Shown here piece after piece: positions 3,072 to 62,542 of a stretch of 64,000 nt of DNA; positions within the stretch are counted from its first letter, which is position 1, and each line of letters opens with the position of its first letter. The stretch is from Microthyrium microscopicum (lineage: Eukaryota). The stretch lies in NCBI GenBank assembly GCA_010405405.1, contig MU004231.1, positions 608,153-672,152 of the forward strand, in the 5' to 3' direction. The translations under genes were made by a program, and so were the position numbers. The notes under the pieces are model-generated. The model saw nothing but the letters and a program-made list of their open reading frames with translations. It ran no database searches and was not told the origin of the DNA.

Positions 3072-3563
3072 TCACGCCAATCTGGGTCGCTCGTAAACAT
3101 GGCCAGCAGAACCAGTTTCAGCGTCAACAAAAAACACGTTGCCGTCAGTTGTCAACTCTTCATAATCGACTTCACTGCCTTTTTGAATCTTCCCTGTTTT
3201 GATCTTTTCGTCATAGGCCGCCTTCTTGAGAGGGTCCATGTATGATGTAGCTTTGGCATGATGGTCTACATAATATTTCCGCCCTTTGGGGTCGGCTCGG
3301 ATTTCCCAGAATCTGTAAGGATCCGAAGCTGTCTTTCCAGTACGCTGATCCATGAAGGTCGTTTGCCTGTCACTTCCTTCACTGTTGGGACGATAGCTAA
3401 TGAAGGCTGGGAGGGCGAGTTCGGGGTTGGCAAAGTGGAAGTTGGAGTTATCGTGCCAGACTGCTTCGTTGGTTGGACCAGCAACTACATTACAATGTTA
3501 CTCAGGATATTCTTTTAATTCAATGTCATGTGAATTACCTTTACTTGCGGCGTCGCTTGCCAT
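3072..3563 (-). CDS. Small WW-domain-like protein (2 exons; intron 3485-3538)
   Basis: Spliced MASDAASK|VAGPTNEAVWH... reads in frame into WEIRADPKGRKYYVDHHAKATSYMDP, a WW pattern with Y in place of the second W. Confidence 0.65.
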
Positions 3564-11464: not shown

Positions 11465-13559
11465 GGGTCTTGGCAATACTAAGCGTTCAAGGCAATCTAT
11501 GTTTGATGCAATTGTATTGTATAAGTTAGCAAGTTGTTGTCAAGCTTGATGCTCAACTATAAAAACGGAGAGTAATTAATGATGTTCGTAGTATGAAGAG
11601 GTAGTGAGACACGGAAATATCTGCCTGCTTGTTATATATACTAGTGCTAACACTTAGAGAATGAGCAGTATCGGGCAGCAAACGATTCAACTGAGGGGTT
11701 CCAAGCAGTTCAAGATGATGACAATAGTAATGTAGCAATGGCGCACCTACTCATGCCTTCAGCCTGATGCAACTTGGTCTGTGGAGCCGTTGGTAGACCA
11801 GCAAAGGCGCGCATCCCATCTTTTGAACAGCAGAGCAGTGACAACCTTAGACTCATGTTTTACAAAAGAAGTCTTTCATGCCCAGGGTCCGACGAGAATT
11901 GGAGCAGCGCATCCCTAGATGCAGGTTATGTGTACCAAACTCAGGGTTATGGGAGTGATTGCGATAAAGTATCCATCTCTGCAAAAAAGGTCATTGTGCG
12001 AATCAGTCACAATGCCCATCAAGATGACTTCAAGTTGTTTCATGAGAGCACCCTTGGGCGGTCTAGAGTGGTTAGATACCCTCGTACTACTTGCGGACGC
12101 TTAGCCTCTTCTCTGTTATGTTCTGGAGCCACATATTCATTGTTATGCGACAAAGACTAAAGAAGATGAACATCTCGACCTGAGCGGAACGTACACTAGT
12201 TTACTTAAGATTGAACATACACATCGTCTCAAACAAGATCGATACATATGTTCGCATTGATTATCCCTTTCGAACGTCCATGGCTCTTCCAAAAGTCCTC
12301 GATCCCTGACAAATTTGTTTGCTACAACTCTTTTGACAAGATGTATCTTCATGTAACTTTCATCAATATTTCCCTCAGTTATGATTTGGTGACTCTTCCT
12401 ACGCTAGTCATTCGCAAAGATGGCAAAGCCGTCCTTCCCCTCGAAAAAGATATCGATTTGTCAGAACCAAGCGACACTTGCAAACATAAGAAGTTGTGTT
12501 TCACTCGTTCCGACCGTCCTGAAGGCTGCCCATGTGGACGGTTACTCTGGTTTCCTGTGACGACTTATCATTGAAGATTTGCTGCAAATTTAGCCTGAGG
12601 TAAACAAGTAGAATGGTTTTCTTTCCTGAACCTCATAATATGCGTCTACGCGCAATCACTGATTCCCATACCCACCGGTTTCGCAAAATCAAAATCTTTC
12701 CTTACATATCTACCAGAGCCTTCCATTCCAGAACCTCATGCTGATCTCGCCAAAGGGTTGCCAGAAACTTTTTTTGTGTCGAAACATGTCACCTCAGCCT
12801 GCCATGCTCACTGTCTCCAGTACCATAAGATAGTTGACCTAGAGGTGACCTAGAGATACCTGATTTGTAGGTTTCTACCAATATCAAGAAACTACCGGGC
12901 CTGCGAAGGTAGATTTGAGGATCGTTGAGGTAAGTACCTAGACAGTTTGTCAGTCGCTATCATGCTTAGGTTCACTGCTGCAACCTCGACCTCGAATTTG
13001 GATATTCAGTGCTGTCCATCTCTTAGAATCTCCAGTCTCCTTACCCACCACAGTTGGCCTTGGCTCCTGTCTGCCAACAACTTCAATGTTGTCAGTGGAC
13101 CTTTACGGGAACCTTTTTTATCGTGACAGCCACCTCAAAGCAACGCCTAGCTGAATTTCTCGAACCTCATTACAGGCTGCAGTTCTCGCCTCGCTCGGAT
13201 TGCTTAAGTGACTTTCCGCAATTCGAGACTACCTCAACATGGTAGGTGTTTACCTGAAGTGACAAGCGCAGACCGGTGGACAAGTTACTTGCTGTCTCCA
13301 ACCTCCAGCCTTTCCTTATCCAACTACTACTTAATCTCCTCACCTTTTGCCCCGTGCTCCACACTCCTCCAACACCCTTGAGCTGCCCGACTTGACAATC
13401 CGAATAATCTTTGGTTGTGTTGCGCAGTCCCCCTTCATATTTTTGTATTCTGCTACCCGAATACTTCTCACGCTCCTACTCTGTATTGACCCCAAACCTG
13501 GCCTTATTCACGTCCGTCCTACTTGCTTAAAGGGTGGAATTTCTTGAACCTGCAAAATT

Positions 13560-15020
13560 ATGGCTAGAAAGGTACCTATTATTCTATGGGCCCGGCTTCA
13601 ATCACTAACATTGACACAGCGGGCTTCCAGCAACTGTTCGAGCGACGAAGACTTCCAGCCGGATTCGAAGCGGCAGAAAGCTTCCAAAGCAAAAGCTGTC
13701 AAAGCCAAATCCTCCAAGCGCAATGATTCAGGAACGTCGGCTACCAAAGAAGGTGCCGTAGCAGCATCAGCGACACCTAGTCCACCACCAAAATCTTCCC
13801 ACTTCAACTTCGCGGCCCTTCCCAACGAGATCAAAGATCTGGTCTTAGATCAGTGCGATGGGAAAATGATTCGCGATCTTCGAAACACGAGCAAGACAGT
13901 CCGCAATTATGTTGACGACTATTGCATTGAACAACGAGTCTATTACCTGGACTTTGATTGGTGGCATCCAAAATTGCAGTATATTGTTCGCCGGGACACG
14001 AATGACATTGTGCTAAAGTATACGGCCAAAGGCGTAAGAAAAGCGACTGGTCGGATTATACGAGCACTTGAAGAAAACACACGTCCAAAGGGCCCATCTG
14101 ACCTAAAGTACTTGTCCACAGTTAAAGTGGTCTCTATACAGTATCTCAAGCGTCACATTACAATAGAGTTGGACAATTGGACCGGCCATATTTGCCAATT
14201 GCCCAAAGGTCATTCTTGCTTGACGATTACGAGCTTCCCTTGTTTGCTGAAACGTTGGTGTCCAAACTTGGAAGGCATCTGGAATCGGGATAAATACTAC
14301 AAAGTTGACTTCAATGCTTCGGGCGACGCAAAATGTTTCGTTCTGGTTCCAGATCCGCCAAACAAGATCACGCAGATGATTCTCAAGCCTATGGTGATGT
14401 TGCCAGAACTATCTGGTCCTTTGGCAATCATGCGGCATTGGCACACACGTCATCATCTGGCCAAGGCTGCTCGCCAGGATTACGATGAAAAGGATGACTA
14501 TGTCACCAACTCAGGTCTCCAACCGCGCGCATTGAAAAAGCACGTTGGGGAGCTTGAAGAGATCCGAGTTCGAAGAAACAAGGTTGTGAAATGGGAAGAC
14601 GACTTGAAGCAAGAACTGCATCGAACTATGGGCCTAGAGTATTCCGAGAAGTTCGTGCGTTTCGCTTTAAGGCTTGAGAGACAATTGGAAGACGCAATTA
14701 TCATCCCGTTGTCCAGGGACGAAATTCGCCGTTTTGAATATTCCGCCGCCAAGGAATTTCTATGTCAGCATAATATTGCATGGGGAGACTGTCCTTGGCC
14801 TGATGGAAAATACTTTTTGCGGGGCGATTATCGCACAGGCCGAAATCTCCCTACTGCTCGCGCATTGTTGGATATGGTGCGTGAGAGCAGCGATTATGCC
14901 GCGATCGTCACCAAGGAGTTCGCCTATTATTTCGATAAGTCGCTGGGACGATGGAAGACGAAAGACAAATACTCTGTGAGTCCATGGGCAAAGCAGCTTG
15001 GGATTGTACTGGAGGACTAA
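13560..15020 (+). CDS. F-box-like protein, paralog A (intron 13572-13619)
   Basis: FNFAALPNEIKDLVLDQCD...LRNTSKTVR is an F-box-like motif; collinear similarity over most of its length to the gene at 24052-25562. Confidence 0.75.
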   Translation: MARKVPIILWARLQSLTLTQRASSNCSSDEDFQPDSKRQKASKAKAVKAKSSKRNDSGTSATKEGAVAASATPSPPPKSSHFNFAALPNEIKDLVLDQCDGKMIRDLRNTSKTVRNYVDDYCIEQRVYYLDFDWWHPKLQYIVRRDTNDIVLKYTAKGVRKATGRIIRALEENTRPKGPSDLKYLSTVKVVSIQYLKRHITIELDNWTGHICQLPKGHSCLTITSFPCLLKRWCPNLEGIWNRDKYYKVDFNASGDAKCFVLVPDPPNKITQMILKPMVMLPELSGPLAIMRHWHTRHHLAKAARQDYDEKDDYVTNSGLQPRALKKHVGELEEIRVRRNKVVKWEDDLKQELHRTMGLEYSEKFVRFALRLERQLEDAIIIPLSRDEIRRFEYSAAKEFLCQHNIAWGDCPWPDGKYFLRGDYRTGRNLPTARALLDMVRESSDYAAIVTKEFAYYFDKSLGRWKTKDKYSVSPWAKQLGIVLED

Positions 15021-15183
15021 GTCGAGGCCGAAATTTGCTCTCATCAAGACCGAGTAGAGGCATGGAAAGGTTAATCGCTACGGTACATGAGCAGGTGTAT
15101 ATAGCATAGGACGCTCAAGAATTCCAGCGGTAGATTTCTATTGCCTTTCACTGGTAGAATTCTCAGTGACTTCATTGTTCTGA

Positions 15184-15627
15184 TCATTTAGCTCCAATAT
15201 AATTTGCCGCAAACTGCATGGACACCGTATACCCAAATGTCCCTAACCCGGCAACAACACCGACAGCAATATCGCTCAAATAGCTGTGATGCCTGAAAGG
15301 CTCCCGCTTATGTACATTTGAAATGTGGATTTCAACAAATGGGATCTCCACGCCACTGAGTGCGTCGCGAATCGCTACACTGGTATGTGTATAAGCTCCC
15401 GCGTTGATAATGATGAAATCAACCTTTTTTCTAGCCTCGTGTATACGGTCAACGATTGCACCCTCATGATTTGATTGAAAGGTAGATAATGTAAGAGACA
15501 GCTGGTCTGCTTGTTTGTGTGCCTCTGACTCTATATCAGCTAGAGTGGTTGTCCCATAGATTTCGGGCTGTCGAGTGCCGAGTAGGTTGAGATTAGGGCC
15601 ATTGATGAGAAGTATTGAGGGAGGCAT
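15184..15627 (-). CDS. qutE: Catabolic (type II) 3-dehydroquinate dehydratase
   Basis: [66 protein letters not shown]. Confidence 0.96.
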
Positions 15628-16123
15628 TTTTCAAATTTTGTGTGGTCCTCCAAAGGGGTGAAATTAGACTTGAAGATAATGTCAGTTGTCAAAATCTTTC
15701 CTTATGACTAGAGAAGTAGAAACGGAGGACAGCATAAAATCGTAGCCTCTTGTCGACTTTGATCCTAACGCATCCCATCTGCACCAAGCCCTGCGGACAA
15801 GGTCCAGCTCCGTTGCATATGCAAGTCAAGAAACTGTGGATCCCTTGAATAAGTTGGCCGTGGATAGCCGCCTAGATGATCTTCGACTATCACGACGTCA
15901 GGATTGAGTAGGAGGCAACAATCTCAAGCGGCCTAAATGAGAGCGACGTTCCGCTATCGGAAGACACATTTGAAAAGACAAGTTAGAGAATTTGGCTGGC
16001 GTTAACGAAGTAGTTCTCGCGGAATTTTCGAACACCAAATCCTTGCAGTAAACATCATAACCTTGCTATATGCATCACTGCCATACTGTATAAGATTCTC
16101 AAGAATAGAAGTCCCCAGCAGAA

Positions 16124-17300
16124 ATGAGCCTTGAAGAAGGAGAGTCCCTAGACAGAATATATGAGTTTGCGGTTCAACTGGGCAAAGATGCTGGCGCACG
16201 TCTCCTCACAGCTGCTACCAGAATGGCAAGCGGTATGGAGCGTTCCGCGGCCAAGCACAAAGCGAATGCTGTAGATCTTGTCACGGAGACTGATAAAGTT
16301 ATGTCCTCAAACCCATATTCCTGAGGTTTTGACTAACAACCTGATAGATATCGAGTCATTCATCAAAGAAAAGATCGCAAAAACGTTCCCCACCCACAAA
16401 TTCATTGGAGAGGAAAGCTATTCCGAAGGATCCTCGAGAGAATACCAGATTGGCGACGAGCCAACTTGGTGCATTGATCCTCTTGACGGAACGGTGAATT
16501 TCTGTCATCTGTTTCCGATGTTCTGTGTCTCCATTGGCTTCATACTGCGAGGGAAACCGACAATAGGGGTAATATATGCGCCGATGATAAATCAATTATT
16601 CTCTGCATGTGTCGGAAAGGGGGCCTGGCTGAACGAATCTCAACGCCTTCCGCTTATGAGAGAGCCTATACCAGAACTGCCGAAGAACGCTCCCGGTGGC
16701 TGTATATTTTCCTGTGAGTTTGGAAAACAGCGCAAGGATGGTCCAAATTCCAATTTTAGGAAGAAGATTGAGAGCTTTGTGAGCATAGCTTCGGACAAAA
16801 GGGAAACAGAGAAAGAAGGCGGTATGGCTCACGGAGTAAGATGTCTTGGAAGGTTGTATATTTCCTTTGTATATGTGACACTCGCTAATCAAGTCAATAG
16901 TGCCGCCATGGATCTTGCATATACTGCACTTGGCGCATTCGACATATGGTGGGAAGGTGGATGTTGGGAATGGTAAGCTTTCACCCAGAAGTGTCTAGAC
17001 CACGATTGACTGTTGTTTAGGGATGTGGCTGCAGGTATCTGCATACTTCAAGAGGCTGGTGGTCTAGTAACCACAGGCACTCCCCCAGGGAATGATCTCA
17101 ATATTGAAATAAGTGAGGTTGGTCTAGGCAGTAGGATGTACTTGGCGATTCGGTAAGTTTGTGGATTTCAGTCGTGAGCTAGGCTAATCAAATCTAGTCC
17201 AGCTGGCCCTTCAGAAGAGGAGACCGGATCGGAAGGTCAAGAGCGAGTTGTGAAAGCAATTTGGAAGCTAGTAAACACGCTGGATTATCCTCGACAATGA
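16124..17300 (+). CDS. qutG: Inositol-monophosphatase-family quinate cluster protein (QutG/QA-X), multi-exon
   Basis: DLVTETD, GEES, WCIDPLDGTVNF, WWEGGCWEW|DVAAG; divergent from qutE. Confidence 0.9.
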
Positions 17301-17436
17301 AATAGCTGAGCCAGAAATATATAAAGCTGCAACTAATGACACGGCATCAAAAACGAAGCTTATAATAGAATATCAATGGGTTGTATATATGCTCTCCCGC
17401 TCATCGGTCATACTAATCTTGTGCTATCAAAAAACC

Positions 17437-18457
17437 TCAGTGTCGCGATTGTTTGAGCTGCTCATGAATCACTGCCTTCACCTTTTCTACTGGCAATTCA
17501 GCCAGCGATTTCCCTGTCCATAGCTTTTGCTAAACTTTACTGTCAGTAATCGTTTTGGTGAAGCTCTAATTTTACGTCTACTGACCTGTTCAATGCCTTG
17601 ATATATCATAGCTTCCGTACCAAGGATCACTTGCCATCCACTCTTTTCTGCAATAGCTCCTAGCTCTGTCCATGGGCTTGGATGGTAGCACATCTCTAAA
17701 ATGGCGCCTTTTTGTTCTTTATTGAGCATAGCTTCAATCACACTCCGAGCCCGGATTTCTTCGGGTGTTGTGGGTGGAAAATCTGGAATGCAGCTGACGA
17801 TAGCACCTGGTGCTGCTAGTTCTTGCGCTTGCTCCACAGTCTCGACATGTATCAGATTCTGGCCAAACCCGATGGATTGACATTCTTGTATCACTTGGTC
17901 GACCTCGTCTTTAAATCTGTTGACGATATAGACCGGTTTGCAGTTCATCATGCGTCGTAGGGCATAGACTGCAGACCTAGCCGCGCCTCCGCTGCCAATC
18001 ACTAAACCTGGTTTACCATCTAGAAGCGATCGATCACTAACATTTTGATAGAATGACTCTCGAATACCAAAGACATCAGTGTTAGTGCCGATATATTTTC
18101 TTCTTCCCTGCTCTTCCCGAATGATGATGGTGTTCACCGCTCCCACCTCTCGACCTTCATCTGTGAGGCCATCAAGATGATCCATAATGGCAACTTTGTG
18201 AGGCATAGTCACCGCAGATCCTACTGTCGAGGTTAAAAGCATGATCCAGCCGTAAAAATATATATACACTTACCATAGCATTTCGGATTGCGAATGAATT
18301 CCAAAAACTCATGAATGCTCTTGCTTTCCAGGAAAGTGAACTTCCAAGGAATACCAAGGTCATCATAAGATGTTTGGTGAAATAGTGGTGACAATGAATG
18401 CGCTATAGGAAAGCCGAATAAGCATCCAACTCCTTCGGCTTCAACAGAGTGCGGCAT
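17437..18457 (-). CDS. qutB: Quinate/shikimate dehydrogenase (2 introns)
   Basis: [39 protein letters not shown]. Confidence 0.92.
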
Positions 18458-19673
18458 TTTGTTTTCTTTGAAGTGATGTGTATGACAAGAGTTGTGATGC
18501 TTGAAGAATAATGTGATTCGGCCAAGAAACAGACTAAACGAGACTACTAGAATGATGAGAGATAAGTTGAATTCAAACTCTTTGATCAACTTCGATGTTC
18601 TTTCCGGAGCTAGGCGAGAGTGACGAGCCCTGGAAATGCCCCCCGGAAAGAGCAATAGAGCTTCCTTTTGCTCTGCTCTCTGATTGATCAAGGAGCCCAG
18701 GCACAGATCCGAAATCGCAGCGGAATGTTCCGCACTCGTGGCGCTCTTTGACGTGCACACGATGGCGACTGGGGTCATTATCCGATCATCGATCCAAAGC
18801 GGAGGTGAAGGCGAAGAACATGGATTTGGGAAGATGAGGAAGATCGCGACTTCGTTTCCTTCGCTCTGATTCGCCATGAATTACTTCTATAAGCGATCAG
18901 GCGAGCTGCACGCTTTGAGCGATCACCAATTTTCTTGGATCCGAAATATGTACCTGTACATGTGCTTTATATATTTATCCGGTCCAAAGAAAGTCTAATT
19001 GTTACTTGCCTAGGGAGGCTTTTCGCGAATTCAGTTCAGTCAGTGCAAATGTTTTGTCTTGTACCTCAGCTATATACGATCACAATCAGATAGATAGTAA
19101 ACTTATGGATACTGTCGATAAACAAAGCCGATTTCAAAAACCATTCGAGCTCTGTAATTACAGTCACAAGTGTTGATGCCATTGCAAAGATACTGTACTT
19201 ATAAGTGTGGCTCAAAGCATCCATAATATGTCTTTAGGATGCAAAGATAGTGTTGGTATAGTACATGTAGAAATGCCGACTAGTTTCCCCGCAGAGCATC
19301 CAGACATCTGCTGTTTTTGCTTTCGTCATGCTGCTCCGCATACAAACTGGGGATTGAGTCAGTAGTGCGGAGGGAGCACCCGCTCTAGCCCTGTCTTCCT
19401 TGTTTCCGACAAACCCTTCGTTGGTTTAAAACGATTCTGATTGGAAGTTACGTGGCGGCTCCACGTGTGGATCTAGACTTTGCTTCAAAGCTACTGAGCT
19501 CTGCAGACAAACTTCCCCATGGGGATGACATGAAGAGAGACAATGGAGTGCATTAAGGTGGTTGATCGACCAAGGAATACTACACCAAGTATTAATATCC
19601 CCAGTCGCACCCTCGTTCGTGCTCCTTTCGATCACCAAATCATTTTCAATTTCTTTCCATACACAACATCAAC

Positions 19674-21444
19674 ATGGGTCTCATGACTTTGGTTGAAGAC
19701 AGGCCTACGCCTAAGGCTGTCTACAACTGGAGAGTGTATGCTTGTGCTGCTGTAGCATCTTTTGCATCTTGCCTTATTGGCTATGACTCGGCCTTCATTG
19801 GCACGACTCTGGCCCTACCATCCTTCACCAAAGAATTCAAGTTTGCGGAATTGAGCAAAGACCAACTAGCGTTGGTCAAATCCAATATCGTATCGGTTTA
19901 CCAAGCTGGTGCCTTCTGGGGTGCATTGTTTGCCTACGTCGTCAACTACTTCTGGGGAAGAAAATGGAGTTTGGTACTCTGGGCACTGATTGTTGTAGTT
20001 GGTGCTGGCATGAATCTTGGAGCAACCGGTGAGCGCGGCTTAGGACTGATTATTGGTGGCCGCGTTCTTGCTGGCATTGGCATTGGAGGAGCTTCGATGG
20101 TCGTGCCCATCTACATCTCAGAACTGGCACCTCCCGCGATTCGTGGTCGACTTGTTGGTATTTACGAGCTTGGTTGGCAGATGGGAGGCCTTGTTGGATT
20201 CTGGTATGTCTTATATGATTCGTTTGCTACAGCGATACTAACATTGATAGGATCAATTATGGACTCACAAAAACTATGGCTCCAAGTCATCGCCAATGGA
20301 TCATTCCCTTCGCCGTTCAACTCATTCCCGCTGGATTGCTATTCATCGGCGCCTTTTGGCTGAAAGAATCACCTCGATTTCTGCTAGCAAAAGGTAGAAG
20401 ACAACAAGCGCTTGATAATCTTTGTTGGATTCGAAATCTACCTGCTGATGACTTGTATATTGTCGAGGAGGTGGCTTTCATAGAAGCAGCACTTGATGAA
20501 CAACGCCGCGTCATTGGAGCTGGATTCTGGAAGCCTTTCCAAGCAGTCGCCAGAGACCGCATGACACAATGGCGATTTTTCTTAGGGGGAATGCTTTTTC
20601 TTTGGCAGAACGGTTCGGGTATCAACGCCATCAACGTAAGTGAACTAATTCTTTACTCTTTTTGTTGGGAATACAACTGACAGTCTATAGTACTACTCTC
20701 CAACCGTATTTGCCTCTATTGGTATTACCGGAACGAGCACTAGCTTCTTGACCACAGGCATTTTTGGTGTAGTCAAAACCACTCTGACTTTCGTCTGGTT
20801 GTTGTTCCTCATCGATAAACTTGGTCGCCGCAAGCTCTTAATGGGTGGCGCATTGGGTGGCAGTCTTTGCATGTGGTGGATCGGTAAGATCTCTCAAAGA
20901 ACTGATCTGAGTGCTTTAGCTAACGATTTCCCTAGGAGCATACATTAAGATTGCTGGAACCAAGCCATCTAGTTCTGGTCATCTGAGCTCCGGTGGCACT
21001 GCTACAGTATTCTTTTTCTACCTCTGGACTGCATTTTATACTCCAACCTGGAATGGCACTCCCTGGGTTCTTAATTCGGAGATGTATGATCAAAGTATCA
21101 GACCTCTCGGACAAGCCTGGGCATCTGCGAACAACTGGTTCTGGAACTTCATCATCTCGAGATTCACGCCACAAATGTTCAACTCCATGGGCTATGGCGT
21201 TTACTTCTTATTCTCTAGTTTGATGATTCTTTCCATCCCCTTTGTCTACTTCCTCATTCCAGAGACTAAGTCGATACCACTTGAGGCTATGGACAGACTC
21301 TTCGCTGTGAAACCAGCTAGCAAGGCTAACAAGGTTGTTCTGGATGAATTGAGGGATCAAGAAGCTGAATTTAGAGCTGATGCAAAAGATGCCGATTTGA
21401 GGGTTAAGAGCAACATGAAGGCTGAGTACAGAGAATCTGTATAG
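19674..21444 (+). CDS. qutD: Quinate permease (MFS sugar-porter family), multi-exon
   Basis: N-terminus MGLMTLVEDRPTPKAVYNWRVY typical of QutD/QA-Y; ISELAPPAIRGRL; WQNGSGINAIN; PETK. Confidence 0.93.
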
Positions 21445-22631
21445 ACCCAAAGATGGAAGAGGGAACTCTTGACTGGGTGATTGACACGATTAACGGACAC
21501 ATGTACTAGAACTTGTTATGGATTAGCGATTGTTCCTTTCCTTCTGTTTATCGATTTCGACAAGAGAAATATAGCTCTATGAAAGCACTACTACAAGTAC
21601 AAATAACAATAATTAACCACCATCATGCTTTTGTTTCTTGTTTTTGCTTTGAGCAGCAAGGTATCAATCTCAAGACACTTCCTCCTCCCCAGCAGTGCCT
21701 CTCAAATATTGCTTTTTGGAGAAATACTTCAGCAAAATACTCCTTAGTGATATGAAGCCAGTGCACGAGCATGGATGTGGTACAGTCCCACTGTCCCATA
21801 CACGTCATTGCTATGCTACCATTTTTCTGGGGAAAAGATGCTAATGTTGCCGGGACACGATATGATGTCTACGAATCTGAAAGTATCCTAGATGAGGGTC
21901 ATCGCAGCCCTCAACAAGGATGGACAGCAAAGATCGGATTCAGTAGGAGGACGCCGGTTAAGTTCTTATCCGGCCTTGAGCCTGGGCTTCTGTTTCCCCA
22001 AAGTAGGTGCTCAGCCGCCTCGTAGTTTACGCAAAGCTACGGCACCTTCCCGCGATGATGCATCTTTAGGTCCATAAAGCGTGAAATATAGAGCATATCG
22101 TGCATATCATTTAAAGTTACGTGCATTAGACCGCATCCAATTCGGTGGTAGAGCCCAGGACAGCGGCTAATACCGGATTTATTTACAATCTTTATCCTGA
22201 CGTCTTGAAGTCCATGTTTATCTAAACTAATTTACTACTTTTTCTCCCCTCAAAGTGGCATAAAAATCGGTAGTTGATGCTGTTGCTGTTGCCGTTGCCG
22301 ATAACTCTCATGTCTTCGCGGAACGCGTTCCGTGCCCTGTATCCGATGTGACGTCTCAGCCTTGCCATATGATCTCCCAAGCAAACTCGCCCGAAACCCC
22401 GTTACACAGTACGAGGCTCTATTATTCACCTGCAATGCTTGGAGAGCAATAACCCGGGCATAGTCGTGGAGAACCGAAGACAGCCTTATCTACGGTAAAC
22501 AAGTCGGCATTTTCAACGCTTCATCAGAGTGCACCAGATCTCCCCAAATCCATTTACATCTTTCCGAATCGTACTTCGAAACTCATTTCATCTTGCCACT
22601 AGATCCTAACACTCTGTCATCGGCTATCAAA

Positions 22632-23666
22632 ATGCGTCACACTGCTGCCATCTCCTCAATGTCGCTTGGGAGAGCCTGGCTTCATGATCTCCCTCACAAG
22701 CTAGACCAAGCCAAGAGATACGGCCTCAAAGGCATCGAACTATTCTACGAAGACCTCGAGTATGTGGCCAAAGATTTCCCAGGCGAAACAAAAGATTCCA
22801 GCCTCATAGCTGCTTCCAGACATGTTCGGACTCTCTGCGATCAACGAGGCCTGGAGATCATATGTCTTCAACCATTCATGCACTACGAAGGATTGCGCGA
22901 CAGAGCCCACCATCAGCAAAGAGTAGCGGAGATGAAGCTCTGGCTCAAACTGGCCAATATCCTCGGAACTCAACTCATTCTCATACCCTCATCATTCCTG
23001 CCGGAGGATGAGATTACTGATGATTTGGATGTCATTGTTGCTGACCTGCGAGAAGTTGCTGAGCTAGGACTTGCAGAGTCACCGCCTATTCGGTTTGCAT
23101 ACGAAGCTCTATGCTGGGGAACATATATCAACACCTGGGAACAATCGTGGGATATCGTCACAAAGGTTGAAATGCCCAACTTTGGCATTTGCATCGACAC
23201 GTTTAATATTGCTGGACGGGTGTACGCAGATCCAGCATCCACATCTGGGACAACGCAAAACGCCGACGTCGATTCAATGATGTCTACACAAAGACTAAGA
23301 AACACATTAGACGTACGAAAAGTATTTCTGGTACAACTCGTCGACGCGGCGAGACTGAAGACACCCATGGGTCCGGGGCATGAGGAATACAACCCATCGC
23401 AAAAAGCGCGGATGAGTTGGTCCAGAGGCCACAGATTATTCTACGGGGAACAGCAGCTTGGTGGTTATCTACCGGTTCTTGATATACTTAAGGCTGTGTT
23501 AGATCTGGGATATGAGGGGTGGATCAGCGCTGAACTGTTCAATAATCTCATGTCCAATCCCGCGCCAGAAGTGCCGCAGACTTTGGCAAAACGAGCAGCT
23601 ATATCGTGGCAAAAGCTACTCAAAGATCTTGGCGCGAGAAGTCCACAAGCCGAGACAAGGCTATAG
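22632..23666 (+). CDS. qutC: 3-dehydroshikimate dehydratase (TIM-barrel, QutC/QA-4)
   Basis: AISSMSLGRAWLH, GIELFYEDL, LQPFMHYEG, FAYEALCWGT, CIDTFNIAGRVYADP, RMSWSR; cluster context. Confidence 0.9.
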   Translation: MRHTAAISSMSLGRAWLHDLPHKLDQAKRYGLKGIELFYEDLEYVAKDFPGETKDSSLIAASRHVRTLCDQRGLEIICLQPFMHYEGLRDRAHHQQRVAEMKLWLKLANILGTQLILIPSSFLPEDEITDDLDVIVADLREVAELGLAESPPIRFAYEALCWGTYINTWEQSWDIVTKVEMPNFGICIDTFNIAGRVYADPASTSGTTQNADVDSMMSTQRLRNTLDVRKVFLVQLVDAARLKTPMGPGHEEYNPSQKARMSWSRGHRLFYGEQQLGGYLPVLDILKAVLDLGYEGWISAELFNNLMSNPAPEVPQTLAKRAAISWQKLLKDLGARSPQAETRL

Positions 23667-24051
23667 CTTTGCCAGGCAATAGACCTTTCATTTGTACATT
23701 ATAAAGATTTGTGAGAATGAACTATATAAGAAATCCACCTCACTGAGCAAATCCCAAGCGCTTGAGTAGAGTCAAGTTGCATTTTGTCCGAAATGACTAT
23801 CTCATCTCGATGCTGATTTGCTAAAACTAGATGATAGCCGTGGTGAGTCTTGTCTCTCCCTTGATTGTGACTTGAAACCCCTGGTTCAACATTCCTAGAA
23901 CTGAGCATATCAACAGCATATTGAGCGGGTGTGACAGAGGTGAAAACCATGCCGCAAAGACCACACAACACTCCTTCATCAAAATGTTTGCATCCTGCGG
24001 TCAATAAATCGATACACTCTCCTCACGCCTTCACTCTATTCCTTAACAAAC

Positions 24052-25562
24052 TCATTTCACGACTCGTCGTGTTTTCTTCGTAGTTGGTGCCATGACTGAA
24101 CCCGAAGCATCCACTTGGAGGCCGTGGAGCTTAGCCCATGGAACCACAGAGTGCTTTTCTCGAGTTTTCCAGCAATAGTTCTCTTGATCAAAGCGATAGG
24201 ATGATTCCTCGTACATCTTGAAAGCTTTGTGGCCTCCCTCACGAACCATGTTCAGCAACGCACGAGCTGTGGGATGGAGAAAAACCGTTATTCCTCCCTC
24301 TCGAGATAGACGAACAGACTGAGCATACTCCCAAGTATCCTGATGACAAGTAAAAACCAAGATATCAAGATCCCTCAGGATATTGACATCCTTGGGGTAG
24401 TAAGAAAGTATCATCAAATCTTCTAGCTGCTTCTGAAGCTTGAGAGCAAATCGAACATATTGTTCAGAGTTTTCCAGACCCATAGCCCGCCGAAGATCTT
24501 CTTCGACATTGGATACCGACTTTTGTCGGCGGTCTTGTGCGACTTTCAGCCGATCCAATTTTTCCCTATGTCGTCGTAAAGTACGAATTTTGAAGTTCTG
24601 CGAGGAGAGCCAGGTACTTTTCTTCTCGTGTTGTAGGTTAGCCACCCGACTCAATTGATGGCAAGAGTGCCAATGCCGAATCATTGACAGAGGACCAGAC
24701 ACTGTCGGCAATAGCAATCGTTCTTTGCTTTTCATCTGTGCAATCTTCTCTGGTAATGACGCTCCCACCCACTTGAAAACCTTCTCCTCGCCCGAAGCGT
24801 TCAGGTTGACGATGTAGTAGCGGTCACCGTTCCAGACACCTTCTAAATTTGGAAATAAGCGTTTCAGCATGCAAGGCAAATTTGAGGTTTTCAGACAAGA
24901 GTGACCATACATATTCTGGCAAGCATGAGTTGGACATAACGACAGATCCAGATGGAGGACGACCGGTATGGATATGAACCGTACTCCAGGAAGAAAAGAA
25001 GGATCCACTGGGTCTGGTAGCTTTGCGTCCCGAACGATCTCGTTCAGACGATATTCAGAATTAGCCAAGAGATTACCTTGGGAACTGAACTTTAGCCCCA
25101 AGTCATCATGACAGTCTTCTGTCATACTGCGACGTTGCCAATCGAGATAGCAAGAATGGATCTCGAAGACCCGTTGCTCTAAGGCATAGGCATCAACGTA
25201 CTGTCGTAGTTCTTTGTTTAAATCTCTCAGCTTTCGAATCATCGAGCGATCGCAGTAATCTAGGATGTGGTCTTTCAGCTCGTTTGGGAGGGCAGTGAAG
25301 GGAAAGTAGGGTTTTTGTGGCGGCGATTTGGTTGATGCCAAATCCGAATGAGTCGATGAACCAGGATCCGCTTCAAGCAGTCTAGAGGTCCCAGAAGTGG
25401 CAGCTCTAGATGATTTGCGTATTGACTTTGCACTGAGTAATTTTTGTCGTTTCCCGGAGAGCACAAAGTCCTTGTCACTCGAGTCGTTGCTGGAGCTACG
25501 CTGTTATAATGTTAGTAGAGCGTCAGGAATTTGAATGGACCAAAGCTTACTTTGCGTGCCAT
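24052..25562 (-). CDS. F-box-like protein, paralog B (intron 25501-25550)
   Basis: MARK|RSSSNDSSDKDF start; FPFTALPNELKDHILDYCD; shares many blocks with 13560-15020. Confidence 0.75.
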
Positions 25563-52254: not shown

Positions 52255-54403
52255 CTAAGCCCATTCAAAGTGCTCTGAATGCAGATATACGCTTCCAGAC
52301 CTCGAGCCTTTGAGAATATTCAAATTTGCAGATGCAACTGCGTTCCGAACATCATTCAGCATCGTCGTTGGACCACAAACGTATACGCCAAGCGATTCGC
52401 CGGCTTCTGCTACTTTTGCTGCTTCGTCTTGAATGATCAGTGGCAGTTTCGGTCGGCCTTCGAACTCCTTGCCAGGCACAGCAGTCTCTACTCCTTTCTC
52501 GGGATCAACAATTCTCTCGTCGTTTGATGAAGTGGCTCCCTGTGAGCTTGTTCGATCCAAACTCTTGTGTGGCAGATCAGCCTTCTCTGCTGCCTCTCCA
52601 GTCAAGTACACCTGTACTCGAATTGAGGACGAAACGCTGGATGCTGGATATCTTGCCAGCAACTCACTTACAGTACGCTCAAACCATATTCTGCTGCTAG
52701 TGTCCCGAGTCGCAAGAATCACACGTAGAGATGTGGGGTTGTGGTGTCGACCGCGTACAGCCGTCTTCTCAGCAGACACTCTCCTTTCACCAGCAGACAC
52801 GGTCTTTTCATCGGTAGGAGCATTGTAACCTTGTTCTTCGTCGCCTGATGTTGCAGCTGATCGGACAAAACGCTCGACAAATGGCAAACACCAGCCAGCA
52901 CCGGCGCCACCAGCAATAACGACGAGATGATCTGCGTCATGAAGCCTTGAGGAGTTGACACCACCATATGGTCCATCGATTTGGACTCGTACCGGCTTGT
53001 CAGCATGGTCAAGCGCATGTTGATACAGCTTCGCAGTAAAACCACCTTGATGCCGAAGATAGAACACCAACTCGTTTTGTTCATTCGTGCTGTTTGCGGG
53101 TGAAGAGCAAATGGTGAATGGATGAGTTGAAATAGATTGCAGAAACCCAAAGCTTGTGAAACGCAAGAAACAGTGCTGGCCTGGGGTCCAATGGAACTTA
53201 ACTGGAACAGTGATGCGGGTGAACCCATTGTCCTCGACAACAATATGCGCTTGCTGAGTCCACCTATACTCAAAGATGGCACGGAGCCACGGATAGACGA
53301 AACAAGGAACATAAACAGCGGCTGTGGCAATGAAATAATGCCAACTGGTTAAAGTATAGTCGCAATGCCAGAAGAAAGTGAGCATGAAAATGGCGACGCT
53401 GACGAAATGGGTTATCTTGAAGAACTCATAACCAAGACTCCTGATAAATTGATTAGTTTCACAATCATTCCTAGGATATCACAAAGATTACTCACCGGAT
53501 TGTGCTGTGGGACATAAAAGTTAACCATGCTTGGAAGACAAGCGCAACTATTCCAGTCCAGTAAAAAAGCAAGTTCGAGGCAAAATGCGCCTCCATATCA
53601 TGCCAACGAATATGGTATACGATGAACGGAAAGGTATGTAATAGCGCAAGGATGAAGAAGGCATATGCAATCCAACGATGGAACACTTGAAGCCTCTCAT
53701 GCGATACACCAGTAAGTAGAGTTATCCAGTTCGTCTTGCTTGCGGTAGCACTGAACATTGTTAGATCATGAAAAGCATCATTGTAGTGTCGAACTTACAA
53801 AACAAATGGCATGCAAGCTGTAGCTAACCATCCAGACCTTGTTGCCAGTGCTGGAGAGTTTCCATATATCTCGGAGGGCCAGTAATAAGGCTTGGGAACC
53901 AAGTCCATACCTAACTCTCATGTTAGCCTCACATTACGAATATGCGACTTTCGTAGGGCATTGCTGAATCAAACTCACAAAAGAAGAAGATTGTGCCAAC
54001 AGCTCCAAGCAAAAGAACCCCTACAGGTGCCGAATTCCATCGCAGTTGTTTTACGTGGAAGCCGCGATACGACAGCCATCTGATACCCGCTATGGACTTC
54101 TGCCATATCGACACTCTTTGAAGTTTACGATGCCTGAAAAGAAGCGACGAGGCAAAGTGGCCAATGATGAAGACACCGATAACACTCATGAAGAACGCCA
54201 CGGTTGGCAATGCGAAGACATAATCAGCAATATACCTGTTGACCGTTAATATGCTGGTCGACACCAAAAACAAGACAGATTTTCACCTACCAATAATGCC
54301 AACGCTGCATGTACCAAGCACATTGTTCTGGAGTAAGCGGGTCACACACGAACATGCGACCGCCCGTGAGCGTTACTGGCGGAGTGAGCCATGCTAAACT
54401 CAT
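52255..54403 (-). CDS. Ferric/cupric reductase (FRE family), multi-exon
   Basis: KTNWITLLTGVSHERLQVFHRW, HPFTICS, DGPYGG, AGGAG, VCGP, HSEHFEW. Confidence 0.92.
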
Positions 54404-54660
54404 GTTGTCGTCTTCAAGCTACTTCCGTCGGCTTTGTCGCAGGTGAAGTTTGAGAGGAAATGCCAAAAGAACAGACTGTGAGTCGCGAGAGGAGAGAAGA
54501 CAGACGGTCCAAATGTTTTCAGTGTTCACCCACTAAATTATTTCCCAAACGTAAGAGATGAATGAGGACCTCGTTGACATGGGCATAGAAGCGTCTTATG
54601 CCCAGGCCCAATGCAAGCTTGTCATGCTGTTTGAAAAGCTTGAAAGCACTTGACCAGCCT

Positions 54661-54763
54661 TTTGCTCGGCAAGTCATTCTAGACTTTCCATTCGTGGTGT
54701 GGTAAGTCGTAAGGCCTGTTCGCTACTGGTGCTTGGTGGTAGTTCTGCGAATATTTGAGCAAG
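54661..54763. promoter_or_regulatory. Putative Mac1-type copper-response elements in the FRE/CTR bidirectional promoter
   Basis: TTTGCTCG at 54661-54668 matches TTTGC(T/G)C(A/G); a near match TGAGCAAG lies on the opposite strand at 54756-54763. Short motifs, supported mainly by context. Confidence 0.45.
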
Positions 54764-55054
54764 TTCCTGCAGCCAGGGACAAGGCCATGCGACTAGCGCA
54801 AATGGAGGATCTGCAAGACGACGATCGTTCACGACACTGCAAATACTCATGATCCCTCGAAAGGAGGGTGGGAATATTTGCTGTGAAATTTATTTTGATT
54901 TAGTTTCATCGACTTTACAGCTCTTCTCATTTCACGGCCGACATCGCATGCTCTAGAAAGATATAACGGCGGAGTGATCATATCGCACATCAGGTCGCAG
55001 CCCAACTTCCATTCAACGACTCGAAATATCAACGACTTCAAGAAAACCGAGATC

Positions 55055-55643
55055 ATGTCTATGGCCGGCATGAGTATGACGACTTCGATGTCTATGCCGT
55101 CGAGTGCAATGGGTGGAATGTCTATGCCGAGCGCAACAAGTTCCATGGCTATGCCAACTTCCATGATGAGCATGGATTCAATGGCCATGACATTCATCTC
55201 GTCTACTATGACTCCGTTGTTCTCCATGGCTTGGACTCCGGATTCCGCAGGAAAATATGCCGGAACATGCATATTTCTGATCGCACTTGCTACAGTCTTT
55301 CGCTTGTTACTCGCGATTCGACTGAACCTTTTTGAATTTCTCGGGGCTGTCAAACATCAACACAAGGAAGATGCGATATATGGTTATGGCAATAATACCG
55401 CAGCAAAGGTTCGACCGTGGAGAGCAAACGAGGCGGTCTGGATAGCATCAATGGACGTGCTTATCAGTGGTGTAGCATATTTGCTGTAAGTGCCATACAT
55501 CATGGTTCAGGATAACCGCTAATCTTTTCAGCATGATTGCAGTCATGACAATGAACGTTGGATACTTTCTATCTGTTCTCGGAGGCATATTTCTTGGAAG
55601 CTTGATATTCGGCCGATTCCTAGCTCAGTCCGCAGCTCATTGA
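55055..55643 (+). CDS. Ctr-family high-affinity copper transporter (intron 55486-55532)
   Basis: Met-rich N-terminus, TPLFSMAWTP...YAGTCIFLI, YLL|MIAVMTMNVGYF (MxxxM), GxxxG. Confidence 0.92.
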
Positions 55644-60331: not shown

Positions 60332-61760
60332 TCAATTGGGTGTCGAACGACACCCGCGGTCCTTCGGGTGACACTTGTGTGGCGGAGGTGGTGGCCCTCT
60401 TAGGGTAGTGTACTCTATTGTTCCAGGCAGAGCGCTCACAGTGTCGGCCACCGAACGACGATCGAGAGCCCAACCGCGCCCAGTATGCAAAATGTCAACT
60501 GTAGACTTCGAACGACGATGGAGAGCCCAACCGCGCCCAGTATGCAAAATGTCAACTGTAGACTTCGAGAGAGCGGGGACGTTCTTGTCGCTCTCAGTAG
60601 CGTCTTGTGATCCACGTGTCACTTGGTGAGTGCTATCCTGGTGGATCCGATCGGATTTCTCAGCTTTATCAGAACTGTCACGCTTCTAGAAAGATTAGTA
60701 TGCATTGATCAATACGACATTGTGACTACAACATACTATCGGTAGTGCCCAAAAGTCCATAAGGAATTCTCGTTCAACGCCTTCGGAACGCTTCAGCGAA
60801 TTCCGTCCCCAAGGCATCCCGAATGAAACATCGGTAGTACGGCGTGCGATTTTTGCAGCGTCTCTTGAACGACGCGTGAGCTGGTTAGTGTTGCGTTGGT
60901 CCGTCCGACCGGATTTCTCAAGTTCGTCGGAGCCGTCGCTTTTCTAGAAGGATTAGTTCCCGTTGATTAGAATGAAATTGTCATCAACATACTACCCCCC
61001 AGCGTTCCGGTGCAAAACTTTGGTCAACGCCCTCAGAGCGCTTGAGCGGGTGAGTGTTGCCTTGGTCTTTTTGATCGGATTTCTCAATTTTGTTGGGGCT
61101 GTCGCTTTTCTAGAAGGATTAGTTTCCGTTAATCAGGATAACATTGTCATCAACATACTACCCCCCAACGTTCCGGTGCGAAACTTTGGTCAACGCCGTC
61201 AGAGCGCTTGAGCGGGTGAGTGTTGCCTTGGTCTTTTTGATCGGATTTCTCAAATCTGTTGGGGCTGTCGCTTTTCTAGATGGATTAGTTTCCGTTGATC
61301 AAGATAATATTGTCATCAACATACTACCCCCCAACGTTCCGGTGCGAAACTTTGGTCAACGCCCTCGGAGCGCTTGAGCGAAGGCCATCTCCAAGGCGAC
61401 CCAAATGAGACGTCGACAGATCGGCGTTCGACCTTATTAAGCCTCGTTTTGGCATTTTTGAACCATATCCAAGGCTCCCCTAATGAGGCATCGGTAGTGG
61501 GAGGTTTAGTTTCTCCGGCACTCGATTTGGTTCTTTCGGCAATCCTTGGCCAAGCACAAGCGTGATAACGATCTTAAGATTTATCCGGTTAGTTGATCTG
61601 ATGACTGATGTATGCTTGGACTGTTGGACCTACCACCGGCTTTGGGCAGACCAAAAGCTGTAGTGTCCTTCTCAGTGAGTCCAGTCTTAGCCCTACAATC
61701 TATAGTAGGGAGAGCAACGGCAACAGACGTCCAGACAGATAGGAGAAATTGGGTCCTCAT
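60332..61760 (-). CDS. Secreted Kex2-processed repeat protein, candidate RiPP precursor (about 389 aa; exons 61760-61634, 61572-61325, 61275-61159, 61109-60993, 60943-60737, 60685-60332)
   Basis: Signal peptide MRTQFLLSVWTSVAVA-LP. Five GT-AG introns with CTAAC/CTAAT branch sites splice into one stop-free 1170-nt frame with 10 KR/RR sites and repeated Trp-containing segments. Confidence 0.85.
60452..60568. repeat. 57-bp tandem duplication within the last precursor exon
   Basis: Two near-identical copies encoding SKSTVDILHTGRGWAL[H/D]RR on the minus strand. Confidence 0.9.
60885..61380. repeat. 166-bp tandem repeat (117-nt exon + 49-nt intron unit), about 3 copies
   Basis: GGGTGAGTGTTGCC recurs at a 166-bp period; each unit contains a minus-strand GTATGT...CTAAT...CTAG intron. 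Confidence 0.9.
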
Positions 61761-62433
61761 TTTGAGTAGATTGGAATTTCTCTTGCAGGTTTAGGAATAT
61801 GGCTCTGGGACGAATTGTTCAACTGAATGGTCTTAGGAATACGATGTTTTATAGTACTTTCCACCCGTCCAGTCATGAGAATGTCTCTTAAGTTTGCTTT
61901 AACACTATCGTACAAGACTTTCGTCTCTAACGTGAAGCCATTCGCCGTTACAACTTCTGTAACATCCAAGTTAGTGCTACACTCATGGATAGTTACGATG
62001 ACATGTTACTCTAGTGTTTTGTTTGTATTACCATGACCAGTTTGTAAACTTTTCACTAAAATCGTCAAATGTGCTTAGCATTTGACATTTCGTTGGTGAC
62101 CCAGCCAAGACATGTTATGGTGTGACAGTCCAGAATCACCTTGTTGGATGTGAACTCCAAATCGAAACATGACTTCTATTTGGTCGAATTAAGTGAAGTG
62201 GGTCTCAATGGTGGTCGGCTAGTTAGCATGGAACCAGTCCTTTTGATGAAGTGAAGGTGGGTTACATAGCACCGTAATACCTAGATGGCCCCCAAAGTAA
62301 AAGAAAAAAGTATAAAAGTGAATTGTACCAACGATGATATTTGTGCAAGGGGGAGCATCACTTGCTGAGGAGTCTCATGACAACTTGTTAATGGAAGCAA
62401 ACCGAGCAAAGGATTTGGTAGTACTATCACGCA

Positions 62434-62501
62434 TAAACTTTACTTATTCTATTAGAGAACTCTCTACGCTAAACTTTACTTGTTCTATCAGAGAACTCTC
62501 T
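62434..62501. repeat. 36-bp-period tandem duplication just upstream of the DUF3328 gene
   Basis: TAAACTTTACTT[A/G]TTCTAT[T/C]AGAGAACTCTCT at 62434 and 62470. Confidence 0.75.
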
Positions 62502-62542
62502 GTGTTCTCCAGCTTCCACTTGGCTTTCCATCGTTTCCAAAC

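Follow-up and report, generated by a model that had tools for sequence, protein, structure and literature searches.

Nine Tyr-free, Trp-bearing units in the precursor of a two-gene dikaritin-like system from Microthyrium microscopicum

The window that we analyzed, a 64,000-nucleotide stretch of contig MU004231.1 of Microthyrium microscopicum, carries what is, judged from its genes, a real and intact dikaritin-like pair: a two-gene system in which a KEP-type precursor and a single, intact DUF3328/UstYa oxidase are encoded head-to-head. The precursor holds nine units of six types, each with Trp and none with Tyr. Among the precursors that we read beside related oxidases, Trp near the unit end is enriched against the published baseline, is not invariant and alternates with Tyr at one position. 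As a proposal, the idea that Trp may take the place of Tyr thus gains real comparative support. The two genes and their parts are as follows.

60332..61760, minus strand: KEP-type precursor gene, 389 aa, six exons (splice model; identical to database protein P0001)
61760-61634, 61572-61325, 61275-61159, 61109-60993, 60943-60737, 60685-60332, minus strand: precursor exons
61633-61573, 61324-61276, 61158-61110, 60992-60944, 60736-60686, minus strand: the five precursor introns removed in the splice model
61713..61760, minus strand: probable signal peptide, about residues 1-16 of the precursor (hydropathy only)
61761..62542, no strand: divergent intergenic region between both start codons, 782 bp
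62543..63535, plus strand: DUF3328/UstYa oxidase gene, 275 aa, four exons (62543-62801, 62862-62984, 63038-63253, 63306-63535)

All five precursor introns have GT..AG borders and CTAAY branch sites in the splice model, and the frame is open across the six exons. The spliced 389-aa product matches P0001 (hypothetical protein, Microthyrium microscopicum) letter for letter, that record being a gene prediction too. Once the introns are removed, the nine Trp-bearing, Tyr-free units of six types that a preliminary description had read from this DNA are all present; the span that it gave, 60452..61500, does hold the units, but the gene extends further, over 60332-61760. Hydropathy marks residues 5 to 22, approximately, as a hydrophobic stretch. 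Ten KR/RR sites occur in the precursor and separate the repeated units, as in a KEP, and with the adjacent DUF3328 gene the locus has the gene content of a dikaritin pathway. Eleven of the 13 Trp residues lie inside the nine units, and the only two Tyr residues (45 and 364) lie outside them. A tenth unit around Trp50 was considered and left out of the count: that stretch contains Tyr, has no anchor and scores −15 on the profile described below. Beyond the last RR, the C terminus of the precursor is a Pro-rich stretch of 40 residues that contains two Cys and is unlike the units (60332-60450, minus strand).

The database fragment of the oxidase, P0002, matches PF11807 with an E value of 7.6e-53 and 180 bits (cut-off 25). 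Two HxxHC motifs and one hydrophobic helix near residues 48-68 are present in the spliced model, the His and Cys residues vary little or not at all across 36 relatives, and the matches in the ESM Atlas are all UstYa. A search of the PDB with the oxidase profile gave 0 matches. Complex prediction for an oxidase dimer with precursor residues 111-147, using zinc as a stand-in, gave no answer in either direction (score 0.00). Just upstream of the oxidase start lies a 36-bp tandem duplication (62429-62501).

The neighbor segments that we scanned encode a carboxylesterase, Ctr, a ferric reductase, DUF1993, Usp, a heme-thiolate peroxidase and a helicase. Among 13 such segments, which cover part of the open reading frames, there was no clustered reductase or transporter of the asperipin type. 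None of the 16 tyrosinase matches in the genome falls on this contig, and there is no S8 protease near the locus, the sole S8 match on the contig lying about 0.86 Mb away. We considered Ctr, the ferric reductase, the carboxylesterase, Usp and the heme-thiolate peroxidase as cluster members and rejected them, since 0 of 10 neighbor segments recur in 91 related loci (80 metagenomic and 11 paralogous, many of them short). The ferric/cupric reductase and Met-rich Ctr copper transporter genes (52255-55489) are themselves arranged head-to-head and lie about 5 kb away from the precursor. As a pair they would supply copper next to the locus of a copper enzyme, an arrangement not seen in related loci. 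The heme-thiolate peroxidase gene (PF01328; L023:5808-6605), likewise not shared with related loci, lies downstream of the oxidase, about 4.6 kb beyond the window end. Farther off are a 134-bp tandem repeat in 2.6 copies with 81% matches and no long open reading frame across it (2311-2654), and a set of open reading frames flanked by two apparently paralogous ones of about 490 aa each (13548-25503). Judged by its translations, this set resembles a quinate-utilization cluster with a dehydroquinase, a shikimate/quinate dehydrogenase and a transporter.

The units, given from the acidic anchor to the first Trp, and the repeated module that carries three of them are listed here.

61469..61495, minus strand: unit 1, TDASLGEPW, without an upstream dibasic site
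61391..61417, minus strand: unit 2, VDVSFGSPW, with RR on one side and KR on the other
61331..61360, minus strand: unit 3, VDQSFAPERW, followed by an intron, after which the follower starts with KS
61165..61194, minus strand: unit 4, core the same as that of unit 3
60999..61028, minus strand: unit 5, core the same as that of unit 3 with 2 silent changes
60809..60835, minus strand: unit 6, TDVSFGMPW, homologous to unit 2
60749..60778, minus strand: unit 7, VEREFLMDFW, homologous to units 3-5
60527..60556, minus strand: unit 8, VDILHTGRGW, closest upstream dibasic site about 40 residues off
60470..60499, minus strand: unit 9, a 57-bp tandem copy of unit 8
60873..61380, minus strand: 166-bp exon-plus-intron module in 3.1 tandem copies (units 3-5)

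All nine follow one grammar: acid, two residues, F/L/H, three or four residues, W. The acid of [VT][DE] stands 7 or 8 residues ahead of Trp in 6 of 6 types, which bears out the pattern of [VT][DE] with a downstream Trp that had been noticed earlier. An aromatic occupies the third position after the anchor (anchor+3) in five of the six types; unit 1 has Leu there. The [VT][DE] pair probably belongs to a recognition or leader element rather than to the start of the core. Units 1 and 2 contain W-x-W. Dibasic sites lie close on both sides of only four units of the nine (2, 6, 7 and 9), units 1 and 8 having no upstream site and units 3-5 no downstream one.

The KS found after the three ERWGV units, in place of the KR after the FWALPI unit, had been pointed out before and is real, as the first codons after the homologous introns read AAA AGC in the one case and AAG CGT in the other. 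An alternative splice that would give KR after the ERWGV units was rejected on inspection: the junction codons spell KS in 3 of 3 cases, and the next AG sites shift the frame.

By its repeats, the gene grew via duplication of exon-intron modules, with the block of units 2 and 3 homologous to that of units 6 and 7, intron included. Among the three ERWGV copies, the encoded amino acid differs at none of the 12 core codons, which show 2 silent changes, and at 11 of the 21 codons in the follower (P = 0.002 by Fisher test), so by codon comparison the cores of units 3-5 are under purifying selection relative to their followers. Between units 3 and 7, 7 of 10 codons have changed in amino acid, and V, the acid, F and W are kept; a comparison of units 2 and 6 shows 3 silent changes, with F, G, P and W retained in both.

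The precursor found only itself in a set of 5.8 billion proteins (queried with exon 2 and with longer proteins, 12 candidates) and among 1.84 billion representatives. It has no paralogue in its own genome and no Pfam match, its ESM Atlas matches are all below 0.9 with a low-confidence model, and tblastn against the related enzyme loci gave nothing significant (best E value, 0.3). Because the precursor has no database homologue, we tested the Trp idea through relatives of the oxidase. There were 236 oxidase homologues at an E value of ≤1e-20, in ascomycetes and basidiomycetes, with identities of at most 54% among the 120 listed, and from a metagenome scan we used the best 80 of 510 matching stretches. 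Precursors were sought beside these enzymes by repeat scans, signal-peptide scans and reading; one repeat scan was blind to Trp, and the output of another was limited to segments containing W, Y or F. We merged nearly identical loci, and many loci were not long enough to be read.

In a quick tree, the query fell in a group of 66 rows with weak support (SH-aLRT 84), within which 17 lineages have a readable precursor. Trp lies near the unit end in 14 of these 17, without Tyr in nine (L045, L049, L055, L058, L064, L067, L075, L078 and L079) and together with Tyr in five (L043, L056, L057, L062 and L086); the other three (L065, L070 and L118) have Tyr in its place. Thus, Trp is not invariant, as far as precursors linked through their enzymes can tell. 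The count excludes L071, L081, L089 and L095, where no precursor was found, and L061, where a secreted-protein gene head-to-head with the enzyme (3100-3455, minus strand) has an in-frame stop inside a unit-like stretch and is possibly a pseudogene. L092, L094 and L104, whose precursors are unclear, lie outside the 66-row group. The head-to-head arrangement of precursor and oxidase recurs in 13 of the 17 lineages.

Resemblance goes beyond the terminal aromatic. An acid stands at −9 to −7 from it in 11 of the 14 repeat precursors of relatives. L118 keeps the VDQSF motif, with Tyr where the query has Trp, and L062 and L078 have DIL..GW units like units 8 and 9. Six of the 14 relatives have an aromatic three residues after the acid, where the null gives 1.5 on average (5 of 5,000 shuffles), for a pattern chosen post hoc; the other 8 lack it. 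On a gapless profile built from the 14 relatives with the query excluded (two training windows include intron letters), the six query types score −4.95 versus −12.2 in Trp-fixed shuffles, the query score being reached in 11 of 5,000; with local shuffles, the figure is 5 of 5,000. Taken singly, units 2 and 7 score at shuffle level. Single-unit precursor candidates lie next to related enzymes in L058, L070 and L074/L075, a form that would escape repeat-based KEP surveys. At the metagenomic locus L078 (100-9000), three related DUF3328 genes occur together with three precursor genes of the Trp type, with each unit on its own exon.

How strong the Trp signal appears depends on the comparison. Set against the published 20.5% of DUF3328-linked KEPs, a baseline counted differently, 14 of 17 related lineages gives P = 8e-8, and 12 of 14 after merging of sister lineages gives P = 3e-7. 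The lineages counted are not independent of one another. In our own control, lineages outside the group, Trp occurs in 5 of 10, and the enrichment is not significant (P = 0.09 to 0.10). Regrouping after a second tree gave 17 of 20 versus 2 of 7 (P = 0.011), a post hoc grouping from a tree of 40 rows with a weak backbone in which no starred group includes the query. Every one of the 20 lineages near the query whose precursor could be read carries Trp or Tyr in its unit (approximately P = 0.05, which is weak). Among the enzymes nearest in the tree, three of five readable precursors are Tyr-only.

On at least two occasions, Trp and Tyr have exchanged inside groups with good support (98/98 and 99/91). 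Tyr-only precursors sit at two well-supported spots in the tree, one of them sister to Trp types (99/91). Such exchange at one position is the behavior expected of a cross-linking aromatic and so counts in favor of the Trp cross-link. The earlier suggestion that one oxidase may act through Trp-based cross-linking is thus partly supported, by the single intact DUF3328 pairing, by Trp in 14 of 17 lineages and by the W/Y exchange; Trp is not invariant, as 3 of 17 lineages have Tyr alone.

The same genome has repeat precursors at 7 of 11 other DUF3328 stretches, 3 of these with Trp. One (L033:6667-7566; G000:C12) is a second mixed precursor head-to-head with a DUF3328 gene and carries some eight types of unit, Trp being present in most, as well as a six-residue repeat of low complexity. 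The locus studied here is therefore not alone in having Trp or mixed cores. In another (L027:2368-2643; G000:C15), DUF3328 genes from a distant group flank five nearly identical units that contain Trp and no Tyr, so Trp cores also exist outside the group that we studied. Further repeat precursors adjoin DUF3328 genes in L025, L026, L029, L034 and L035, that of L034 being of a His-His type.

These comparisons point, tentatively, to a dikaritin-type pair in which the oxidase would close a ring of 5 to 8 residues on the Trp indole, most likely to the β-carbon of the F/L/H at anchor+3; we hold this as our preferred reading, with slightly more doubt than belief. The precursor would be secreted and cut by Kex2. 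The DUF3328 protein, with the motifs seen here and the activity of CctR and AprY as a guide, would be a membrane-anchored, O2-dependent dicopper oxidase that binds the acidic anchor and couples a residue upstream of Trp to the indole, at N1 or at a carbon of the ring. A bond from the indole to the β-carbon at anchor+3 would give a ring of 5 or 6 residues with the first-to-last spacing of the asperipin-2a core; this spacing, F to Y, and the aromatic three residues after the acid are why we favor it. Alternatively, a ring of 7 or 8 residues may form to the trimmed N-terminal amine, as proposed for the epichloecyclins, a possibility raised by the match of units 2 and 6 to their x-x-F-x-x-P-aromatic ring. 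Unlinked peptidases might then trim leader and follower up to the ring, in which case release could proceed even where KS stands instead of KR. The output could be up to six different cyclic peptides.

With W and Y swapped at the same position in related fungi, such enzymes may also close rings via Trp. We consider it conceivable, though with somewhat greater reserve, that single DUF3328 enzymes that macrocyclize Tyr-free peptides via the Trp indole (C-N or C-C to an sp3 carbon), with an anchor 7 to 9 residues upstream and a terminal Trp or Tyr accepted, form a widespread and unrecognized group. Such a group would be a fungal counterpart of the plant Trp-linked burpitides, and the precursor described here would be a natural six-substrate test of enzyme tolerance. 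Should a stand-alone DUF3328 enzyme be able to cross-link through Trp instead of Tyr, many orphan clusters would open to interpretation, and biocatalysis would gain a useful tool, a promiscuous copper cyclase encoded with its substrate by two genes and suited to Trp-bridged peptides. Naturally occurring W/Y pairs (this precursor with L118, sharing VDQSF, and L070 with L057/L067) allow direct swap experiments.

A first alternative, which we find unlikely, is that the oxidase modifies the peptides elsewhere than at Trp, by hydroxylation, desaturation or halogenation of a side chain or by a link between two other residues, and that Trp is kept for receptor or target binding. DUF3328 enzymes are described as hydroxylating, halogenating, isomerizing and desaturating (PMC12435403, PMC10512285), anchor+3 varies from F/L/H in the query to D/N/A in relatives, and W/Y exchange would fit a binding role too. 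Yet the single oxidases of the asperipin-2a and epichloecyclin systems, as published, cross-link at a conserved terminal aromatic, and the occurrence of Trp or Tyr in all 20 near lineages leans the same way, weakly when taken alone.

Slightly less likely is release of the units as linear pheromone- or hormone-like peptides ending near Trp, with the oxidase acting elsewhere or on none of them. KEP peptides with a C-terminal Trp have been detected experimentally in mushrooms (PMC9769878), the W-x-W of units 1 and 2 is typical of pheromone-type repeats (PMC7329392), an ESM Atlas feature search returned, as a lead only, clusters named pheromone or MF-alpha at 0.79 to 0.83, and four related enzyme lineages with long flanks (L071, L081, L089 and L095) showed no precursor. 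However, pheromone KEPs almost never adjoin DUF3328 genes, with 3 exceptions in the survey text (PMC7329392); the units have no Cys and no XA/XP run; the enzyme gene is intact; and the pairing is head-to-head in 13 of 17 lineages, while 0 of 10 other neighbor segments recur in the 91 loci. An ascomycete alpha-pheromone precursor in particular was rejected, with STE13 XA/XP runs absent, DUF3328 adjacent and no Pfam match for the precursor. That only some units function, the rest being drifting copies in a diversifying or decaying precursor with a library smaller than six, or that the locus is silent, is very unlikely: only units 2, 6, 7 and 9 are closely bracketed, units 2 and 7 match the relatives' profile poorly, the precursor has no homologue and the related locus L061 has its in-frame stop, but the open frame and canonical introns, the purifying selection on cores 3-5 despite their missing downstream KR, the residues retained between units 2 and 6, and the GigA cores that likewise have no downstream KR (PMC10540207) all speak for function.

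Our preferred reading, ring closure on Trp, can be set beside known systems as the available text of the sources describes them, with the likeness to asperipin-2a and the epichloecyclins judged by precursor and gene content and not by enzyme clade. Asperipin-2a (AprA/AprY, Aspergillus flavus) is likewise made from a multi-type KEP precursor with a single DUF3328 protein and no tyrosinase (PMC6514808, PMC7329392). That one enzyme forms links from Tyr-O to β-carbon in a hexapeptide core running from F to Y (PMC6514808), and the spacing from Phe to terminal aromatic is that of units 3-5 and 7. Unlike the query, whose cores are Tyr-free and whose scanned neighbors include neither gene, asperipin-2a has Tyr ethers and a clustered reductase and transporter.

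The epichloecyclins of Epichloe are the closest precedent for variety, one oxidase (GigB) and the imperfect repeats of GigA giving five products (Zhang 2023, PMC10540207). LXKR precedes the unit there too, and their seven-residue ring, x-x-F-x-x-P-aromatic, recalls units 2 and 6. GigA cores are succeeded by a follower without KR, which an unknown protease removes with ragged ends, and from preliminary NMR data, the N-terminal residue seems to aminate the aromatic ring (PMC10540207). These precedents, imperfect repeats with one oxidase and a follower without KR, largely explain the mixed cores and the KS. The preliminary description had held that the KS units would need another protease or give longer products; the KS itself is there, but its consequence is not surprising given the GigA cores. 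In contrast to the query, the epichloecyclin core starts immediately behind KR and has an almost invariant Tyr and a methylated Lys, and its cluster includes a kexin and a SET methyltransferase. The query has an acidic stretch after KR, Trp in place of Tyr, cores without Lys and no nearby S8 protease.

Ustiloxins and phomopsins share the logic of a KEP with DUF3328, but their formation depends on a Tyr at the N terminus, on a tyrosinase and on two to five DUF3328 proteins (PMC7329392). Victorin is a Tyr-free dikaritin cyclized through Phe (Ford 2022, PMC9233826). Against the ustiloxin and phomopsin type, the query stands apart in its Tyr-free units, the lack of a tyrosinase on the contig and its one oxidase.

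Asperigimycins, which Nie et al. reportedly described in 2025, are said to be fungal RiPPs with an indole-derived benzofuranoindoline core made from Trp/Tyr cores, and reportedly need Tyr and several DUF3328 oxidases. They probably already show DUF3328 chemistry on Trp; the query differs in its Tyr-free units and single oxidase.

The survey of KEPs gives a broader frame. Tyr occurs in 65.6% of DUF3328-linked KEPs, about a third being Tyr-free (PMC7329392), and Trp occurs in 20.5% of them versus 24.5% of those without DUF3328, with no enrichment (Umemura 2020, PMC7329392). Mixed repeats are frequent in KEPs (Umemura 2020, PMC7329392). KEP type P-3, the W-type, has 4 of 7 members adjoining DUF3328 genes (PMC7329392) and resembles the query in its W-containing repeats, a likeness by description, as its sequence is given in a figure only. 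The genus of the query gave 0 hits in the available supplements of that survey (PMC7329392). Our literature search, which left most subscription papers and figure-only sequences outside its scope, found no characterized Tyr-free, Trp-bridged product of a single DUF3328 enzyme.

The chemistry itself has a parallel in plants. CctR, ApnU and AprY have copper- and O2-dependent DUF3328 activity as dimers, and the copper site of DUF3328 proteins is similar to the one in BURP cyclases from plants (PMC12435403). Lyciumin-type BURP cyclases make links from the Trp indole N to carbon and use repeats of recognition sequence plus core (PMC12186524), so with a similar four-His dicopper site, indole chemistry is plausible here. 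The plant enzymes are dicopper four-His cyclases acting on repeated recognition-plus-core units, as is proposed here, although the plant family is unrelated and belongs to another kingdom, an analogy of chemistry and not of membership. Several elements are already in print, namely one oxidase serving mixed cores, dikaritins that lack Tyr, cores without KR at their end, and DUF3328-linked repeats that contain Trp; to these, the present analysis adds the naming of a testable Trp-type enzyme group.
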